Assembly: GCA_003524095.1 (NCBI GenBank)
Contig: DOEE01000003.1
Span: forward strand, 160,785 to 224,784
DNA: 64,000 bases
Direction of reading: 5' to 3'
From: Clostridiales bacterium
Lineage (GTDB): Bacteria > Bacillota > Clostridia > Christensenellales > UBA1242
The notes beneath the pieces are model-generated. The model had not been told where the DNA came from, did not search any database, and saw only the letters and a program-made list of their open reading frames with translations. Positions 3,859-40,766 of the stretch are shown here, piece after piece. Made by a program: the position numbers and the translations under genes. Numbering within the stretch: position 1 is the first letter of the stretch; each line of letters starts with the position of its first letter.

Positions 3859-4823
3859 GCATTAAGTTTGTCGATGGTGGCAAAGTATATAATGTTGAAA
3901 CCAATTTGGAACTAGCACCAAATTCTCTTGTTGTGGTTGAAAGTGTTAGGGGCATTGAAATCGCCAAGGTTACCAAACCTACAAATCAAACAGACGAAGG
4001 CGAAATCAAAAGTCTTATAAGACTCGCTACAGACGAAGACATCAAAAAGAATGAAGAGTTTAAAAAACAAGAAAAAAAAGTTGTAAAAATTACAAACGAA
4101 CTTATTTCAAAATACAATTTGGACATGAAATTAGTTGATGTAGAATTTACTCTTGACGGAAGCAAGGTAATTATTAATTATGTTTGTGAAGACAGGGTGG
4201 ACTTTAGAGAACTAGTCAAGGATTTGGCAAGTCAACTAAAGACACGAATAGAACTTAGACAAATTGGAATTAGAGACCAAGCCAAAAAAATTGGTGGAAT
4301 AGGTTTTTGTGGCAAGGAATGTTGCTGTAAAAAATATCTTAATGATTTTGACAAAGTTAGTATCAAAATGGCCAAAACTCAAGGGCTTTCGCTCAATCCT
4401 TCAAAAATCTCGGGAATATGCGGAAGACTTATGTGTTGCCTTGCGTATGAAAACGAGTTTTATAGCGAAATTAATGGCAAAATGCCAAAGATTAATGCTA
4501 GAGTCAAGACTCCCGACGGTGTTGGCTCAGTAATTTATAACAACCTTCTCAAACAAGTTTGCACAGTTAGGATTGAAAACGAGAGTGACTCCAAAATTTC
4601 GGAGTATACTCTTGACCAATTGACGGTTATTCCAAAGGAAAATGTTCAACCAAAACCAGCACAAAAAGAAAAACAACAAAATGTGCAAAACCAACAAAAC
4701 AAAACTCAAAACAATGCAATTTCTAAGGACAAACAAGAAAAATTAGAAAATTCGGACGACTCAAAGACCCAAAACAAGAAAAAGTTTAAAAAATTTAAAA
4801 AACATGGAAATTCTAAAAACTAA
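3846..4823 (+). CDS. ricT: PSP1 domain protein (RicT/YaaT-like), K/Q-rich C-terminal tail
   Basis: GGAGG RBS before ATG at 3846 (track ORF starts earlier at 3786). Cys-rich PSP1 signature GFCGKECCCKKYL...GICGRLMCCLAYE. Confidence 0.85.
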   Translation: MSKIGIKFVDGGKVYNVETNLELAPNSLVVVESVRGIEIAKVTKPTNQTDEGEIKSLIRLATDEDIKKNEEFKKQEKKVVKITNELISKYNLDMKLVDVEFTLDGSKVIINYVCEDRVDFRELVKDLASQLKTRIELRQIGIRDQAKKIGGIGFCGKECCCKKYLNDFDKVSIKMAKTQGLSLNPSKISGICGRLMCCLAYENEFYSEINGKMPKINARVKTPDGVGSVIYNNLLKQVCTVRIENESDSKISEYTLDQLTVIPKENVQPKPAQKEKQQNVQNQQNKTQNNAISKDKQEKLENSDDSKTQNKKKFKKFKKHGNSKN

Positions 4824-20730: not shown

Positions 20731-21078
20731 ATGTATATGATAGTAATGAAATTAAATCCAGAGCCATTTGAAAAGATTAAGTCTCACAAAAAAATTTGGG
20801 AAGTAAGACTTAATGATGACAAAAGAAAGGGTGTCCATATTGGTGATAGAATTCTATTTAAAAAGCAACCTGAACTTTTGGAAGGGGTGCTTGCTAAGGT
20901 AGTCGACATCAAACACTTTAATAGTTTTGAAGAGATGTCTGAAGTTTTGTCTTTGACTAGTGTGGGCTTTGAGCCGGGAGCGACAAAACAAGATTGTGTA
21001 GATTGTTACCACAAATATTATACTCCAGCCGAAGAACAAAAGTTTGGTGTAGTTGCATTCAAATTAGAAGTTGTTTAA
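20731..21078 (+). CDS. ASCH domain protein
   Basis: About 113 aa. PEPFEKIKSHKKIWEVRLNDDKR...GDRILF resembles the ASCH/PUA-like fold N-terminus. The start could be the ATG at 20737. Confidence 0.6.
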   Translation: MYMIVMKLNPEPFEKIKSHKKIWEVRLNDDKRKGVHIGDRILFKKQPELLEGVLAKVVDIKHFNSFEEMSEVLSLTSVGFEPGATKQDCVDCYHKYYTPAEEQKFGVVAFKLEVV

Positions 21079-21117
21079 AAAAAGTTAAGCGGATAATTTT
21101 ACCGCTTAACTTTTTTT
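21077..21117. terminator. bidirectional terminator between convergent genes
   Basis: A-run, stem gttaagcgg/ccgcttaac, T-run. Confidence 0.8.
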
Positions 21118-21134
21118 AATATATGTTAATTTTT

Positions 21135-21845
21135 TTACATCTCTTGTTGTTTGAATTTTATGTTTCTTTCGATTACATCATAGCAGGCTTGTTTTAATTT
21201 TTGTCCTACTGGATTATTATTGTTTTTAATTACTTGTTGTTCTATTGAATCAAATGGGTTATATAGGAGATATAGCTTTAAAAGATTCATTTGGACTTTC
21301 TCATATTCTTCTTTTATACTTGGTGTTGATTCGCTATGAGTTATTCGATTGTTTTTAATATCATCAAAATTATAAGGTTTTTCTCTTTGAGTTCTAAATG
21401 AACCAATTTTACCCAACTCAACATCTGGAAGGTCATAGCCTAAATGAATAACTGCCGAAATGTTTCCTATGTAATCAGCCGTAGTCGAAGTTTCGTGATA
21501 TAGTGAGAAAGTTTCTTTGTTAAGCGATGGAGAGGACATCCCACTTTCTTCAAAATCAAACTCCATGTTTAAGTTTGGATATAATTCCAAAAGTCTATTT
21601 TTTAGAACCAAGACAAATTCACCGAAAGTTGTATTAAACAAGTCTTGGTCTTTCTCTAGTTCTATTTCAATTGGTTTTCTTTGTCTTAGAAGGCTGTCTC
21701 TATTTTTAGCATATTGATTCAAATATCTTTTGTAACTAACTTCGTGGTTTGAAGATGGTTTAATTGTGTCTGCGTTAAAGTTAGAAATTTCTCTAGTTAA
21801 TAAATTGTATTTTTCAATTAATTCTTGTATTCTTTCAGTATTCAT
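21135..21845 (-). CDS. hypothetical protein
   Basis: GGGAGA RBS before the ATG at 21845 (track ORF starts at 21899). No recognisable motif. Confidence 0.5.
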   Translation of the reverse strand: MNTERIQELIEKYNLLTREISNFNADTIKPSSNHEVSYKRYLNQYAKNRDSLLRQRKPIEIELEKDQDLFNTTFGEFVLVLKNRLLELYPNLNMEFDFEESGMSSPSLNKETFSLYHETSTTADYIGNISAVIHLGYDLPDVELGKIGSFRTQREKPYNFDDIKNNRITHSESTPSIKEEYEKVQMNLLKLYLLYNPFDSIEQQVIKNNNNPVGQKLKQACYDVIERNIKFKQQEM

Positions 21846-22052
21846 ATTATTCTCCCATAATGTTACATAGATTTTATCATTGAATACAAGTATTGTCAAT
21901 ACTGATTTTTGAATATACTATGTGAGAGATTTGCGAAAAAGTACAGAAGTTTCTCCACTTCTTTAATTTATTCAACTACATTATAGCAGATTATCTAAAT
22001 TAATGCTAATAGATTTATATAAAACTTTTTGTTCCTAAATTGTGATTATTAA

Positions 22053-22095
22053 AACAAAAAGCCCCATTTTATGGGCTTTGATTATTGTGGCGGAG
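22053..22095. repeat. direct repeat A: orphan copy of the tRNA-Ser terminator plus last 8 nt of tRNA-Ser
   Basis: aacaaaaagccccattttatgggctttgattattgtggcggag. 3 substitutions and 1 indel relative to 24351-24394. Confidence 0.85.
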
Positions 22096-22138
22096 CATGT
22101 GTAACGTAAAACGAATTTAAACAAAACTTTACATAATA

Positions 22139-22168
22139 TTGTTAAAATTATAAAAAGTATGCTATAAT
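22139..22168 (+). promoter_or_regulatory. strong sigma-A-type promoter with extended -10: TTGTTA-18-TGcTATAAT
   Basis: -35 at 22139-22144, TG at 22160-22161, -10 at 22163-22168. AAGGAG RBS and the ATG at 22188 follow. Confidence 0.55.
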
Positions 22169-22187
22169 ACGAAAAAAGGAGAATTAT

Positions 22188-23093
22188 ATGGAAGGATATA
22201 TATTTTTAGGAATAATTTGTCTTGTGGGAATACTTGCTTTAACATATTATATTATAAACACCAAAAATCTTAATAAAACAAAACATATGAGTAATATGTA
22301 TAAAAAAATTATAGAAGTAAATGAAAAATATGCTTTTAATTCTGATATTGAAGAAGAAATGAAATTTTCACCACGTTTAAAGTCTAAACGTTCACTTGAT
22401 AAATTTGATATGAGTGCATATGTTATGAGTGATATTGTAGAGAACAAATCATATTACAAAACAATATTTAATAAGGTAGAAGAAAATATTTCATTGTATA
22501 AATCATATTTGAATGAATACTCAAAAATTGAAAATTATATGACTGAAGAAGAATATTCTAAATTAGAGAATCCTAAAATAAGTTTAAAAACTTTAAATAA
22601 GTGTGAACAAAAATTATATAATAAAAACAAATATGCTCCGCCCATTACTTCAGTAGAAGCTCATTGTCATGCAACATATACTAGTCCGTCTGGAAGAAAT
22701 CACTATTGGAGAGATGCTCGTTTTGATTACGATGACTTAAAAAGTTTTTTTAGTGCAATAGAAAGAAAAGAGTTATTTGCTAAACAGGAAGCGGAACGAA
22801 AGGCAAAATTAGCAGAAGAGAAACGAGCAAAAGAGAAAAAACTAAGAGAGTTAGATAAATTAGAAAAAAAGTTGGCAGAAAAAGAGCAAGAAATAAATAA
22901 AAAAGAAAAAGAGTTTTTAGAAGCGACAAAAGCGCACATATACACTACTGACAATGTGGCTATTGACAATGCTGAAATTGAAATAGATGAAAATTTAACA
23001 ATTTCGCAAAAAATGAAGTTGTTAAGAGAAAAGTTTGACAATGGCGAAATTACTTATGAAGAATATCAAGCAAAAAGAAAGGAATTGATGTAA
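22188..23093 (+). CDS. membrane-anchored coiled-coil protein with SHOCT-like C-terminus
   Basis: AAGGAG RBS. TM helix GIICLVGILALTYYII, K/E-rich coiled coil, C-terminal MKLLREKFDNGEITYEEYQAKRKEL (SHOCT-like). Confidence 0.6.
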   Translation: MEGYIFLGIICLVGILALTYYIINTKNLNKTKHMSNMYKKIIEVNEKYAFNSDIEEEMKFSPRLKSKRSLDKFDMSAYVMSDIVENKSYYKTIFNKVEENISLYKSYLNEYSKIENYMTEEEYSKLENPKISLKTLNKCEQKLYNKNKYAPPITSVEAHCHATYTSPSGRNHYWRDARFDYDDLKSFFSAIERKELFAKQEAERKAKLAEEKRAKEKKLRELDKLEKKLAEKEQEINKKEKEFLEATKAHIYTTDNVAIDNAEIEIDENLTISQKMKLLREKFDNGEITYEEYQAKRKELM

Positions 23094-23094
23094 T

Positions 23095-24234
23095 ATGGAA
23101 AAAGAAATGTTACAAAATGATATTGAAGAATTGAAAAATATTAAACAATCATTACAAATGGATATAATAGAATTAGATGATAAAATTTTATTTCAAAATT
23201 TTGGTGTATATCAACCACAATATAATTTTGCAACATTGGATGAGTATAAAGAAAAATTAGACGATATAAGAAATCAACAAAAAGAAATGATTAAAAGTCA
23301 TACTGCTGCAATTTGTAATACTGCATGGAAAGTTCAAGGAAGTGAAAAAGCAGGAAAAAAAATGATTGCTGAAAACATACAACAAGCATTACGAAACTTT
23401 AATATTGAATGCGATTTATGTATTAGCAAAGTGAAATTTAGTAATTATGATAATAGCAAAGAAAGAATATTTAGAGCATTCGAATTACAAAACAAATTAA
23501 ATGCAACTAACGATATACATATAGTCGATGAATACTATAAACTAAAAATAAAAGAACTTGATTTGGCTTATGAATATCAAAAGAAAAAACAAGAAGAAAA
23601 AGAAGAGCTTAGAAGAAAGCGAGAAGAATTAAGAGAAGCTGAAAAAGTTGCACGAGAAATTGAAGAAAAAAGAAAAGAACTTGAAAAAGAACAAGAACAT
23701 TATCAAAATTATTTGAAGAAAATAAATGAACAGATTGAAGTTGAGCAAAGCGAAGAAAGAAAACAATACTTAATTTCGAAAAAAGAAGAATTAGATAATA
23801 ATGTACATGATGTTCATCTTGCATTAGAAGATTTAGATTATAGAGAAGCAAATCACAGAGCAGGTTATGTATATATTATTTCAAATATAGGTGCTTTTGG
23901 AGAAAATATCTTTAAAATAGGAATGACAAGAAGATTGGAGCCTGAGGAAAGAATTGCAGAATTAAGTGGAGCATCTGTTCCATTTAAATTTGATATTCAT
24001 GCAATGATTTTCTCTGATGATGCACCAAAACTTGAGGCAGCACTGCATAATCATTTTGCCGATAAAAAAGTCAATCTCGTAAATGGAAGAAAAGAGTTCT
24101 TTAATGTAACTCTTGAAGAAATAAAGAAAGTAGTTAGAGATAATCATGATAAAACTGTTGACTTTGTAAATGTTCCTGATGCAGAACAATATAGAGAAAG
24201 TTTAATGATAAGAAAAAATTTAAATGCAAATTAA
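23095..24234 (+). CDS. DUF4041-like plus T5orf172/MUG113 (GIY-YIG superfamily) domain protein
   Basis: Starts 1 nt after the upstream stop. FNIECDLCISKVKFSNYDNSKERIFRAFELQNKL (DUF4041-like). C-terminal GYVYIISN..FKIGMTRRLEPEERI..LH..F....EFFNV (T5orf172-like). Confidence 0.75.
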   Translation: MEKEMLQNDIEELKNIKQSLQMDIIELDDKILFQNFGVYQPQYNFATLDEYKEKLDDIRNQQKEMIKSHTAAICNTAWKVQGSEKAGKKMIAENIQQALRNFNIECDLCISKVKFSNYDNSKERIFRAFELQNKLNATNDIHIVDEYYKLKIKELDLAYEYQKKKQEEKEELRRKREELREAEKVAREIEEKRKELEKEQEHYQNYLKKINEQIEVEQSEERKQYLISKKEELDNNVHDVHLALEDLDYREANHRAGYVYIISNIGAFGENIFKIGMTRRLEPEERIAELSGASVPFKFDIHAMIFSDDAPKLEAALHNHFADKKVNLVNGRKEFFNVTLEEIKKVVRDNHDKTVDFVNVPDAEQYRESLMIRKNLNAN

Positions 24235-24350
24235 TTTATTGCTCACGCATTTACTTGATGTGAACAAGTGAGTTGCTATGCTTAAGGTGAGTAAACATTT
24301 TTAATTAATCAATATTTTTATCGTATGGTAGACCATTTATGGTTTTCTGT

Positions 24351-24394
24351 AACAAAAAAGCCCCATTTTTGGGGCTTTAATTATTGTGGCGGAG
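24351..24394. repeat. direct repeat B: authentic terminator and 3-prime end (ctccgcca) of tRNA-Ser
   Basis: aacaaaaaagccccatttttggggctttaattattgtggcggag. Overlaps tRNA-Ser positions 84-91. Confidence 0.85.
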
Positions 24395-24477
24395 ACGGAG
24401 AGATTCGAACTCTCGTGCAGGTTACCCAGCAAACGCATTTCGAGTGCGTCCCGGTACGACCACTTCGGTACGTCTCC
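24387..24477 (-). tRNA. tRNA-Ser (anticodon CGA), 91 nt with long variable arm and encoded CCA
   Basis: Reverse complement ggagacg-ta-ccga...; anticodon stem acgca/tgcgt with loop CTCGAAA; T-arm gagag-ttcgaat-ctctc; acceptor cgtctcc-g-cca. Confidence 0.9.
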
Positions 24478-24669
24478 AAAACACACATAGTTTAACACGA
24501 AACTTTCTGATTGTAAAGTTTATTTGTTAAAAATACTTGTAATTATTGAGTGGTGTTTTACTATTTTCCAAAATTTGTAAAAAACTTATGACTTTTAACA
24601 GTTTTATGGTTAATCAAAAGCGAATTTTTAAAAATGAATAAAAAGCATATTTTTGCTTAAAAATATACT

Positions 24670-25221
24670 ATGTCAAAAATTATTCTTTTTATATCCGCAT
24701 TTGTGCCGATGTATATTTTGTTTTTAATTAATTTAATAGTCGAAATTCTTAATAAAAATTTAACTTTTAATGTTACGAATACTTGTGTAATGGTGGCACT
24801 ACTAATACTAACAATGGTTGGAACAATTGGGCTTATGATAATCTTAAAGTTTAATCAAAAAGAGTACAAGACCATAAAAGTTTTGTCTAAAACCAATATA
24901 ACTGACCAACATTTTTTAAATTACTTTTCGTTATTTGTTTTGCTTGCACTTGCGTTTGATTTGTCAAAACTTTGTTTTGTTAGTGTTTTTGTTGTAATTC
25001 TAATTTTTATTGGAATTGTTTATATCAAAAACAATATTTTCTATGTAAATCCTTTGCTTAATATTTTGGGATATAGTTTTTATGATATTGAGTATGTCGA
25101 TGATAGTGGAAAAACTCAAGATTTAAGGATATTTTTCAAGGGTACACTGGATATTTCCAAACAAGAATATGAGTTGTGTGTATCTAATAGAAATTTGAAT
25201 TTTTTAAAGAAAAAAGATTGA
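24670..25221 (+). CDS. hypothetical polytopic membrane protein (4 TM plus small soluble C-terminal domain)
   Basis: 183-aa ORF with no obvious SD. Its stop overlaps the start of the next ORF. Confidence 0.45.
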   Translation: MSKIILFISAFVPMYILFLINLIVEILNKNLTFNVTNTCVMVALLILTMVGTIGLMIILKFNQKEYKTIKVLSKTNITDQHFLNYFSLFVLLALAFDLSKLCFVSVFVVILIFIGIVYIKNNIFYVNPLLNILGYSFYDIEYVDDSGKTQDLRIFFKGTLDISKQEYELCVSNRNLNFLKKKD

Positions 25222-25733
25222 ATACTCAAAAAGTTACTGATATTGATACTAGTGTTAATTTTAAAGGTCGCACAAAACTTACAAGCGTAGTTATTCCAAA
25301 CAGTGTTACATGGATTGGAACTTCTGCTTTCAATGGTTGCACTGGACTAACTAGTGTAATTATGCAAGATGGCGAAAAAGATGTAACATATTTGGGCAAC
25401 AATGCATTTGACGGATGTACTAATCTTACAAATATAAGACTCTCGAGTACTTTGACAAGTATGAGTAGCCAAGTATTTAATAATTGTAAGAGCCTTACTA
25501 GTATATACATTCCTGCATCTGTAACCGACATTCGTGCAAATGATGATTACCCATTCTTCAATGGCTGTTCAAAAGCTTTAAAAATTTATTGTGGAGCTGA
25601 ATCTAAACCTGACGGTTGGGGTAAACGCTGGAATTATAATGGGACTTTTGGCACTTCGTCTAAATTAGCAGATGTCACCTGGGGTGTTACTAGGGAACAA
25701 TACGAACAAGCAATTAGTCAAACACAAGAATAA
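25218..25733 (+). CDS. BspA-type leucine-rich-repeat (LRR_5-like) protein, no signal peptide
   Basis: Repeats of the IP.SVT.IG..AF..C..LTS type (VVIPNSVTWIGTSAFNGCTGLTSV, NAFDGCTNLTNI, QVFNNCKSLTSIYIPASVTDI). TTG start overlapping the upstream stop. Confidence 0.55.
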   Translation: MNTQKVTDIDTSVNFKGRTKLTSVVIPNSVTWIGTSAFNGCTGLTSVIMQDGEKDVTYLGNNAFDGCTNLTNIRLSSTLTSMSSQVFNNCKSLTSIYIPASVTDIRANDDYPFFNGCSKALKIYCGAESKPDGWGKRWNYNGTFGTSSKLADVTWGVTREQYEQAISQTQE

Positions 25734-40311: not shown

Positions 40312-40339
40312 TTGAAAAATTGAGATGACTAATCATAAT
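40312..40339 (+). promoter_or_regulatory. candidate promoter TTGAAA-16-CATAAT upstream of tRNA-like unit S1
   Basis: -35 at 40312-40317 and -10 at 40334-40339. Lies just after the stop of the small membrane-protein gene. Confidence 0.35.
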
Positions 40340-40412
40340 GACTCGCATTGTTGCTCTGCAACAATTGTCGGGTGGCAGTGAAACTGACGGGGTCCCGACT
40401 ACACTCAACCGT

Positions 40413-40476
40413 AGGTTGGGAGTTCCAAGCAAGAATTGCTTGACAAGCATGAAATGCTTGGAGTCTCTTAAGTGCA
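40413..40476 (+). repeat. inverted tRNA-Arg-derived segment S1: variable loop/T-arm/acceptor 3-prime strand interrupted in the T-loop by two 17-nt hairpins
   Basis: aggttgggagttc [caagcaaGAAttgcttg a caagcatGAAatgcttg] gagtctcttaagtgca, versus tRNA sense aggttgggagttc|gagtctcttagggtgca. Confidence 0.6.
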
Positions 40477-40529
40477 AACAAAAAAGCAAGCCATGAGGCT
40501 TGCAGTTTTTTGGTGCACCCAAGGACTCG
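40462..40529. repeat. direct repeat copy 1 (about 87 percent identical to 40641-40710): tRNA-like tail plus terminator plus tRNA-Arg 3-prime end
   Basis: Manual alignment of agtctcttaagtgcaaacaaaaaagcaagccatgaggcttgcagttttttggtgcacccaaggactcg with copy 2 gives 7 substitutions and 2 single-nt indels. Confidence 0.8.
40486..40511. terminator. bidirectional terminator hairpin (copy 1)
   Basis: gcaagcc-atga-ggcttgc with A6 upstream and T6 downstream. Confidence 0.7.
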
Positions 40530-40569
40530 TCAATATGAGCGAAGCGAAAATTTGTCGGAGTGAGAGTGC
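40511..40569 (-). pseudogene. degenerate, internally deleted tRNA-Arg copy (59 nt) retaining acceptor ends and CCA
   Basis: Reverse complement gcactct-cactccgacaaattttcgcttcgctcatattgacgagtcc-ttgggtgc-a-cca. The 5-prime 7 nt match the acceptor of the real tRNA-Arg, and the same terminator follows. Confidence 0.5.
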
Positions 40570-40594
40570 TTGCACTCGGGAAGAACGACGACTA

Positions 40595-40653
40595 CCAAGT
40601 TCGAAAGATGTCAAGAGACATCTAAAAGCCGAAAGGCTTTTGTCTCTTAGGGT
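40595..40653 (+). repeat. inverted tRNA-Arg-derived segment S2 with two different hairpins at the T-loop position
   Basis: ccaagttcg..[agatgtc-aaga-gacatct][aaaagcc-gaaa-ggctttt] gtctcttagggt. The last 12 nt are identical to tRNA-Arg sense positions 58-69. Confidence 0.55.
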
Positions 40654-40710
40654 AAAACAAAAAAGCAAGCCAAGTGGCTTGCAGTTTTTTGGTGCACCCT
40701 AAGAGACTCG
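40641..40710. repeat. direct repeat copy 2, overlapping the true 3-prime end of tRNA-Arg
   Basis: tgtctcttagggtaaaacaaaaaagcaagccaagtggcttgcagttttttggtgcaccctaagagactcg. Also an extended palindrome (gtctcttagggt ... accctaagagac) around the terminator. Confidence 0.8.
40665..40690. terminator. bidirectional terminator hairpin (copy 2), terminator of tRNA-Arg
   Basis: gcaagcc-aagt-ggcttgc with A6 upstream and T6 downstream. Confidence 0.75.
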
Positions 40711-40766
40711 AACTCCCAACCTTTGGTTCCGTAGACCAACGCTCTATCCAATTGAGCTAAGAGTGC
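40690..40766 (-). tRNA. tRNA-Arg (anticodon ACG), 77 nt with encoded CCA
   Basis: Reverse complement gcactct-ta-gctc-aattggata-gagc-g-ttggt-CTACGGA-accaa-aggtt-gggag-ttcgagt-ctctt-agggtgc-a-cca. Confidence 0.9.

Follow-up and report, generated by a model that had tools for sequence, protein, structure and literature searches.

The pdif modules of Acinetobacter and the IMEX elements at dif sites carry no recombinase of their own and use the recombinases of the host. Cis-mobilizable elements (CIMEs) in Streptococcus thermophilus are reportedly flanked by attachment (att) sites, lack the genes for recombination and transfer, and are mobilised by accretion with a related integrative and conjugative element (ICE). 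CIMEs form a category listed in ICEberg 2.0 (PMC6323972). The anti-phage nuclease SNIPE, which is PD-lambda-1, cuts phage DNA during injection; it is sequence-non-specific, and an N-terminal transmembrane segment tethers it to the inner membrane, whereas 34% of homologues have no transmembrane segment (PMC13190303). A term search of that paper gave no mention of SHOCT or of a partner-gene arrangement. We compared with these systems a 2.3-kb two-gene cassette in a 64,000-nucleotide stretch of contig DOEE01000003.1 (the whole stretch is called the window), which comes from an uncultured human-gut Bacillota bacterium. The cassette encodes a SNIPE homologue and lies between two copies of a repeat that contains the 3' end of tRNA-Ser(CGA). 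With a probability of about 0.6, we read positions 22096–24350 as a small accessory island without an encoded recombinase, which carries a two-gene anti-phage cargo and is inserted at the 3' (CCA) end of tRNA-Ser(CGA). The parts of the cassette and its borders are as follows.

22053–22095, no strand assigned: repeat copy A, an orphan "terminator + TGGCGGAG" with a weakened hairpin; TGGCGGAG is the last 8 nt of tRNA-Ser on the plus strand
22096–22138, plus strand: left cargo end CATGTGTAACGTAAAACGAATTTAAAC..., which begins directly after TGGCGGAG and is kept in L188
22139–22168, plus strand: promoter-like site TTGTTA-18-TG-TATAAT, a consensus match only
22188–23093, plus strand: open reading frame 1 (ORF1), 301 aa, putative membrane partner of ORF2
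23095–24234, plus strand: ORF2, 379 aa, PD-lambda-1/SNIPE homologue
24235–24350, plus strand: non-coding right cargo end, with a hairpin-containing stretch behind the stop codon of ORF2; the segment ends in ATGGTTTTCTG at 24339–24349
24351–24394, no strand assigned: repeat copy B, the working tRNA-Ser terminator with the last 8 nt of the tRNA
24387–24477, minus strand: tRNA-Ser(CGA), proposed insertion target (ARAGORN, Rfam)

Alignment of copy A (43 nt) with copy B (44 nt) gave 40 identities, 3 substitutions and 1 indel, and the likeness of the two copies ended abruptly at both repeat edges. Since the tRNA-Ser placed by ARAGORN (Rfam tRNA score 52.6 bits) overlaps copy B, this copy consists of the last 8 nt of the tRNA (CTCCGCCA) and the terminator hairpin, and its sequence is identical to that of the empty alleles described below. 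The hairpin of copy A is weaker (−10.1 vs −15.0 kcal/mol for copy B), with 7 pairs and an 8-nt loop vs 9 pairs and a 4-nt loop. An initial annotation, made from the letters of the window alone, had given the same repeat coordinates and differences, the same origin of copy B, an orphan copy A with a weakened hairpin and a sharp end of similarity at the repeat edges, and all of these were borne out by the alignment, the ARAGORN position and the folding energies. Most of the repeat is a terminator hairpin, a common type of sequence, which would suit a dispersed terminator or repetitive extragenic palindromic (REP) sequence or a chance match, the finding that the initial annotation had named as fatal to its own reading. 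However, a degenerate 35-nt pattern with up to 3 mismatches found only copies A and B in the 64-kb window and had no match in any of 100 shuffles, empty alleles hold one copy beside the tRNA, and the repeat had no matches in the viral contigs of IMG/VR, so the probability of a dispersed or chance repeat is practically negligible. Thus, the data support an att-like duplication of the tRNA 3' end, of which copy A is the orphan copy.

The two genes between the repeats lie on the same strand with a spacing of 1 nt, no other ORFs were found there, and an AAGGAG ribosome-binding site is placed between the promoter-like site and ORF1. The initial annotation had described the two same-strand genes and the TTGTTA-18-TG-TATAAT site in the same way, and both were found again, the promoter by consensus match. 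GC content was 26.7% in the cassette, 32.3% in the window and 36–37% in housekeeping genes. Directly after the SNIPE stop codon, a hairpin stretch at 24240–24275 (CTCACGC..CTTG....CAAGTG..) is kept in three genomic contexts, with counterparts at 2495–2530 of L188 and 7060–7095 of L152; it has no T-run and is therefore probably no simple terminator.

Ten versions of the locus were retrieved through the neighbouring KwaA-like gene. Seven of the ten carried no cargo and had only two structured non-coding modules, Y and X, between the terminator of the ASCH-domain gene (21075–21119) and the tRNA, with a terminator after each module. One version had only module X downstream of the tRNA (L006), one carried an ADP-ribosylglycohydrolase (ARH) gene (L004), and one equalled the window with the cassette present (L008). 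Empty sites with a single repeat copy were found in L002, L003, L005, L007, L009, L010, L011 and L146, the last being a further empty allele from a metagenome scan with the KwaA-like protein, whose other matches were distant homologues without the tRNA. The empty site that the initial annotation had proposed to look for is thus the majority allele. The exact KwaA-like protein was present on 187 contigs and the exact ORF1 protein on 3, which meant that the cassette is rare. One 2340-nt contig (L016) starts with CCGTCAAAGCA, in which module X ends; the variant copy A known from the window and the whole cassette come next, and the contig stops inside copy B, so the cassette in that strain is an exact insertion into the common empty allele. 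This contig is not circular, because its ends do not overlap; on each side, it extends by exactly one 31-mer past the outermost base that tells the filled from the empty allele. Such ends would be expected of an assembly bubble with both alleles in the sample, given k = 31 in Logan assemblies.

The variable segment in the window (21117–24350) is larger than the cassette and includes one more part.

21117–22052, minus strand: further strain-variable segment, which holds a 236-aa gene; modules Y and X occupy this position in other strains

The 236-aa gene (21135–21845, minus strand) had no Pfam, PADLOC, NCBIfam or PHROG match and was found only in cassette-bearing strains of this lineage (5 contigs), in place of modules Y and X; it is not homologous to a 235-aa gene in L189. 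The initial annotation had set the limits of the cassette at the repeats (22053 and 24394), which held, and had missed this larger variable segment as well as the restriction of the shared junction to the 8-nt tRNA end and the duplications at tRNA-Arg, both described below.

The junctions were then compared between backgrounds and cargos. The initial annotation had suggested a search for the cassette elsewhere. In L188, ORF1 is 97% identical and the cassette lies behind a different gene with an unrelated terminator (ACAAAAAAGCACACTTATGTGTGCAGTTTT), yet the cargo begins directly after TGGCGGAG with the same left end as in the window. The junction common to these backgrounds is therefore only the 8-nt tRNA end, the terminator part being host-specific in L188. 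The unrelated ARH cargo gave a similar picture, as L004 reads TGGCGGGG, then the ARH cargo, then ATGGTTTTC-TGGCGGAG, and then module Y. The window and L004 each contain the 11-mer ATGGTTTTCTG a single time (at 24339 in the window), at the right cargo end in both cases, with an anchored chance probability of about 4e-6; in the window, the terminator follows it directly. In L189 (ORF1 57% identical), an orphan terminator with TGGCGG lies left of the block with a diverged SNIPE pair. Three to four junctions at the same nucleotides, with differing cargos and backgrounds, argue for a site-specific step with a core within TGGCGG(A/G)G. In IMG/VR, TGGCGGAGACGGAGAGATTCG flanks prophages of 33–37 kb, whose boundary falls in the T loop, which meant that the 3' end of tRNA-Ser serves as an att core in other bacteria.

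A history without any site-specific step, in which a single illegitimate recombination or duplication was followed by homologous recombination through the conserved flanks, would draw on the mosaic structure of these flanks, as the 236-aa gene lies left of copy A in the window and module X in L016. It would also draw on L004, whose tRNA-Ser(CGA) (4557–4647) differs from that of the window at 6 positions. Five of these six are compensatory-looking changes in the variable arm, the allele resembles that of L085, and about 45 nt upstream are divergent too, so a block containing the tRNA was apparently imported by recombination. Homologous recombination clearly redistributes the alleles of this locus, but it leaves unexplained the abrupt junctions at the same nucleotides in differing backgrounds: in L188, this cargo end directly adjoins TGGCGGAG although the terminator in front is unrelated, and the unrelated ARH cargo shares both the junction and the right-end 11-mer. 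We therefore consider an origin without a site-specific step quite unlikely.

Under our reading as an island, insertion would have occurred by site-specific recombination with the short core within TGGCGG(A/G)G, and the recombinase would have been supplied in trans or since lost. The element would carry its own terminator and tRNA end; with these brought in, the tRNA stays intact and the duplication grows from 8 to 43 nt. The allele would then spread between strains by ordinary homologous recombination in the flanks, which would explain why the window and L016 do not share the sequence on the left of copy A. One layout could serve both cargos, namely [cargo, ATGGTTTTCTG, (module), terminator, tRNA end], integrating into an allele with module X only, such as L006. 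In the ARH case, module Y and terminator term2 would both be present; in the SNIPE case, the module would be absent and the terminator of the term1 type, hence the long duplication. A circle of the cassette would have the junction GGTTTTCTGT + repeat + CATGTGTAACG. In sum, the cassette behaves like a mini-island that is flanked by att sites, lacks an integrase and occupies a variable hotspot.

The modules themselves are about 150 nt long, have two types of core (X-like and Y-like), and lie downstream of tRNA-Ser in other strains and of tRNA-Arg in the window. X and Y are homologous yet differ in every hairpin stem, while the stems stay complementary. The consensus fold was better on the strand opposite to the tRNA (−22.3 vs −11.5 kcal/mol), with 15 pairs showing double changes, and several G-U pairs and GNRA loops are valid on that strand only. 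Together with a related module of another species (L085), X and Y were made into a covariance model, with which two more modules, M1 and M2, were found in the window downstream of tRNA-Arg(ACG).

About 40330–40476, plus strand: module M1, X-like, core nearly identical to X, promoter-like site at 40312–40339
40477–40521, no strand assigned: orphan "terminator + TGGTGCACCC", where TGGTGCACCC is the 3' end of tRNA-Arg
40512–40656, plus strand: module M2, Y-like, covariance score 29.8 bits, E = 2e-5
40657–40766, minus strand: terminator and tRNA-Arg(ACG), the tRNA at 40690–40766
Module loci elsewhere: L002 5346–5725; L085 6500–6740; L034 about 340–540; L181 7640–8330

M1 and M2 are each followed by AAAAAAGCAAGCC....GGCTTGCAGTTTTTT and TGGTGCACCC, which make up a second direct repeat (40477–40521 and 40657–40700). 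In every module, the closing helix is built from the adjacent tRNA 3' end: the reverse complement of the tRNA end, as far as the T loop, forms its left strand, and its right strand is a sense copy of the 3' strands of the T stem and acceptor. A scan of contigs with GCGGAGACGGN{1,5}GATTCGT returned nearly exclusively chance matches in high-GC genomes, and the useful loci were L085, L034 and L070. In L085, a perfect repeat of about 50 nt (terminator and 23 nt of tRNA-Ser) brackets a single module, and L034 (Faecousia) has the same layout with a different core. No Rfam family reached its gathering threshold on the modules; the Rfam Clostridiales-1 RNA gave one match of 20.4 bits in a shifted register, below its 48-bit threshold and not recurring, and none to X, Y or the modules of L085, L034 and L070. 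Integron attC sites, IS200/IS605 elements, IS110 bridge-RNA elements, miniature inverted-repeat transposable elements, group IIC introns and a 44-bp target-site duplication were weighed as explanations of the modules and repeats, and none accounts at once for the target-derived helix, the long repeat, the unequal duplication lengths (8 vs 43 nt) and the lack of an enzyme gene. GCGAAGC occurs in modules X and M2, and GCGAAAGC in module Y. Both sequences form unusually stable DNA mini-hairpins. The modules might therefore work as single-stranded DNA and not as RNA.

These arrays bear on the origin of the repeat. The repeat at tRNA-Ser might have pre-existed as the periodic "terminator + tRNA end" unit of a module array, with the cargo entering by an 8-bp duplication and the module being deleted later. 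Arrays of [tRNA-end-like sequence, module, terminator] do exist at tRNA-Ser in other strains and at tRNA-Arg in the window, with repeats of 44–50 nt; the duplication at the ARH cargo is just 8 nt long, and the cargo is followed by ATGGTTTTC-TGGCGGAG and module Y; and the 11-mer that ends the ARH cargo stands directly before the terminator in the window. However, this course needs two to three events, one of them the almost exact loss of a module, none of the alleles seen at tRNA-Ser had two term1-type units, and a single event explains both cargos if the element carries [cargo, (module), terminator, tRNA end] into an allele with X only. A pre-existing array is thus possible but doubtful as the source of the repeat, and we keep it as the chief alternative to our reading.

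The modules may be small RNAs, scaffolds of recombination sites or the core of a new kind of mobile element, and they could be part of the insertion machinery. Their position beside tRNA-Ser and tRNA-Arg, the tRNA-derived closing helix and the duplicated terminator and tRNA end after each module suggest that they may be the core of undescribed tiny recombinase-less integrative elements at tRNA 3' ends, composed of an optional cargo, a module, a terminator and a copy of the tRNA end. The SNIPE and ARH cassettes would then be cargo-bearing members, the SNIPE one having lost its module, and the structure of an RNA or of single-stranded DNA would programme insertion at the matching tRNA through a factor encoded elsewhere. 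We put this forward tentatively and think it rather unlikely.

The cargo was analysed by domain and profile searches. ORF2 matched the PADLOC PD-Lambda-1 profile with E = 1.5e-149 (profile positions 104–477 of 491) and Pfam PF13250 (DUF4041, now named SNIPE) with E = 5e-16. Its C-terminal GIY-YIG-type nuclease domain was found with PF10544 (T5orf172, E = 1.6e-19) and PF13455 (MUG113, E = 5e-20), and the nuclease motifs GYVYII...KIGMT...R...E are legible in the translation; no sequence match was found in the PDB. Judged by its domains, ORF2 is a member of the SNIPE family. It is devoid of the N-terminal ~100 aa of SNIPE and of the transmembrane segment, with a maximum 19-residue hydropathy of 0.96.

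The initial annotation had offered three explanations for the cassette: a trans-mobilised mini-island, a decayed island, or homing-type insertion by the GIY-YIG-like gene. The nuclease domain of ORF2 does belong to the GIY-YIG superfamily (T5orf172), which speaks for homing, but homing is unsupported because ORF2 matches the PD-lambda-1/SNIPE defence nuclease in full length, an architecture that is not that of a homing endonuclease. In addition, the nuclease-free ARH cargo uses the same junction, the ORF1-ORF2 pair occurs in many unrelated genomic contexts, and the target is neither a conserved protein gene nor an intron. Homing is therefore very unlikely, and a trans-mobilised or decayed mini-island fits best of the three. 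As a whole, the earlier interpretation survived in its att-like duplication, its orphan copy A and its discrete recombinase-less unit, and it failed on homing.

ORF1 has one N-terminal transmembrane helix (ORF2 has none), followed by a conserved alpha/beta domain with the motif CHATYTSPSGRNHYWRD; a long coiled coil comes next, and the C-terminus has a SHOCT-like motif. In its AlphaFold model (pLDDT 87), the alpha/beta domain is confidently modelled and a helix of about 70 residues is seen; the model had no significant fold match in the PDB. The pair with its 1-nt gap is kept in other contigs at 43–57% ORF1 identity. This conservation down to 43% identity means that the pair is an operon and not a broken gene, and it ruled out that ORF1 and ORF2 are one frameshifted gene. 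At E <= 1e-10, 174 representatives of the ORF1 family were counted, and its transmembrane-plus-domain module is fused elsewhere to Mrr, HNH or helicase/PD-(D/E)XK nuclease domains (P0151, P0185, P0133, P0209), which suggests that the N-terminal module is a reusable membrane adaptor for defence nucleases. An ORF1-like domain is also fused to LRR_5 in protein P0174. ORF1 would thus be a membrane-tethering partner of ORF2 with a predicted anti-phage function: it may anchor in the membrane and recruit or regulate the anchorless SNIPE protein ORF2, which would cut phage DNA entering the cell. The pair would represent a two-gene form of the recently described SNIPE, in which a conserved protein of its own serves as membrane anchor. 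L152 (3750–7420) has an ORF1-SNIPE pair that is 78% identical, together with a helix-turn-helix (HTH) gene and a YspA/SLOG-like gene, inside a tRNA cluster.

Recombinases were searched in several ways. The Pfam annotation of syntenic contigs covering about 1–32 kb and 34–64 kb of the window consisted of housekeeping genes (metG, ksgA, spoIIE, smc, rnc, ackA, pta, deoB/D and others) and several ORFs without family assignment, any of which could be an unrecognised recombinase, and included no recombinase family, so the statement of the initial annotation that the window contains no integrase, transposase or excisionase stood in the part scanned. Direct scans of six neighbouring ORFs gave no recombinase either. 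Neither the X-core 20-mer nor relatives of ORF1 were found among viral contigs, and ATGGTTTTCTGGCGGAG had 8 matches there, all to one unrelated phage coding sequence and hence by chance. ORF1 (tblastn) and modules Y+X (BLAST) had no match in phage and plasmid collections, and the 10 alleles, IMG/VR, and the phage and plasmid collections yielded no autonomous element whose integrase would use this att site.

A number of results weigh against our reading of the cassette as an inserted island. No integrase, transposase or excisionase was found in any of the 10 locus alleles, no such gene came up in phage, plasmid or IMG/VR searches with the repeat or ORF1, and no excised cassette circle was seen. 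Terminator sequence makes up 35 of the 43 nt of the repeat, the rest being tRNA, and a core of 8 nt, taken alone, says little in favour of site specificity. Since the duplication at the ARH cargo does not go beyond these 8 nt, the long SNIPE repeat needs an extra assumption. In L152, the pair is arranged as it is here, its 3' end against that of tRNA-Val(CAC), and has no direct repeat. At tRNA-Arg, M2 is absent in L184 and duplicated in L181; this variation in array copy number is as expected for unequal crossing-over, and simple unequal homologous recombination suffices for it, which also favours a history without a site-specific step. Finally, the role of ORF1 as a tether is based on homology and domain fusions, and both the defence function and the interaction of ORF1 with ORF2 are predictions.

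The surroundings of the cassette also carry defence-related genes on the 5' side of the tRNA.

24670–25221 and 25218–25733, plus strand: KwaA-like membrane protein and small LRR_5 protein, 5' side of the tRNA, defence-island context

The KwaA-like protein had a PADLOC match with E = 3e-19 and an NCBIfam score of 61 bits, under the cut-off of 100. No KwaB was found beside it, the next gene encoding a 171-aa BspA-type LRR_5 protein, and the two could be an incomplete or variant Kiwa-like pair. Genes for MazG-like and SIMPL-domain proteins are inserted 5' of tRNA-Ser, before the KwaA-like gene, in L006 (4709–5892) and L004; the insertion point corresponds to about 24537–24590 in the window, and the insert is flanked by a direct repeat of about 14 nt, TTTTCCAAA(A)TTTG. 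On the other side, an ASCH-domain gene stands beside the SNIPE pair both here (20731–21078) and in the unrelated context L149 (3474–4283), which may be a coincidence or a recurrent defence-island neighbour.

Compared with described systems, the cassette resembles islands and prophages integrated at tRNA genes in its direct repeat with the tRNA 3' end, of which one copy completes the tRNA and one is an orphan, in the empty sites of relatives and in a GC content below that of the host. However, it has no integrase in or beside it, it measures 2.3 kb vs tens of kb, its junction lies at the last 8 nt (CCA end) instead of the T loop or anticodon loop, and its repeat is mostly flanking terminator. 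The cassette thus fails the test of an integrase inside, by which an autonomous island is recognised. It is closer still to CIMEs, with which it shares att-type repeats, the absence of an own integrase and a site where elements gather in tandem; it differs in its far smaller size, its defence cargo and the absence of a cognate ICE or integrase from our searches, and since no cognate autonomous element was found, membership in the CIMEs is unproven. The pdif modules and IMEX elements are likewise small recombinase-less gene modules between copies of a short, partly palindromic site, but the repeat described here is a tRNA end with a terminator and bears no resemblance to dif. As for the cargo, ORF2 and SNIPE/PD-lambda-1 both have DUF4041 and GIY-YIG-type nuclease domains; SNIPE of E. 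coli is one protein with its own N-terminal anchor, whereas here the anchor region is missing and the product of a conserved gene upstream is a transmembrane protein with a domain of its own. The case illustrates how a minimal defence cassette without any recombinase can reside at a tRNA gene and apparently move there, and clean filled, empty and alternative alleles are available from natural gut populations. The family of modules associated with tRNA 3' ends may account for the duplication and merits a study of its own. In its alternative cargos at one position (SNIPE pair, ARH, MazG + SIMPL, KwaA-like), the locus is like the defence hotspots known beside tRNA genes, and it is set apart from the usual ones by its precise att-like junctions and its structured non-coding modules.

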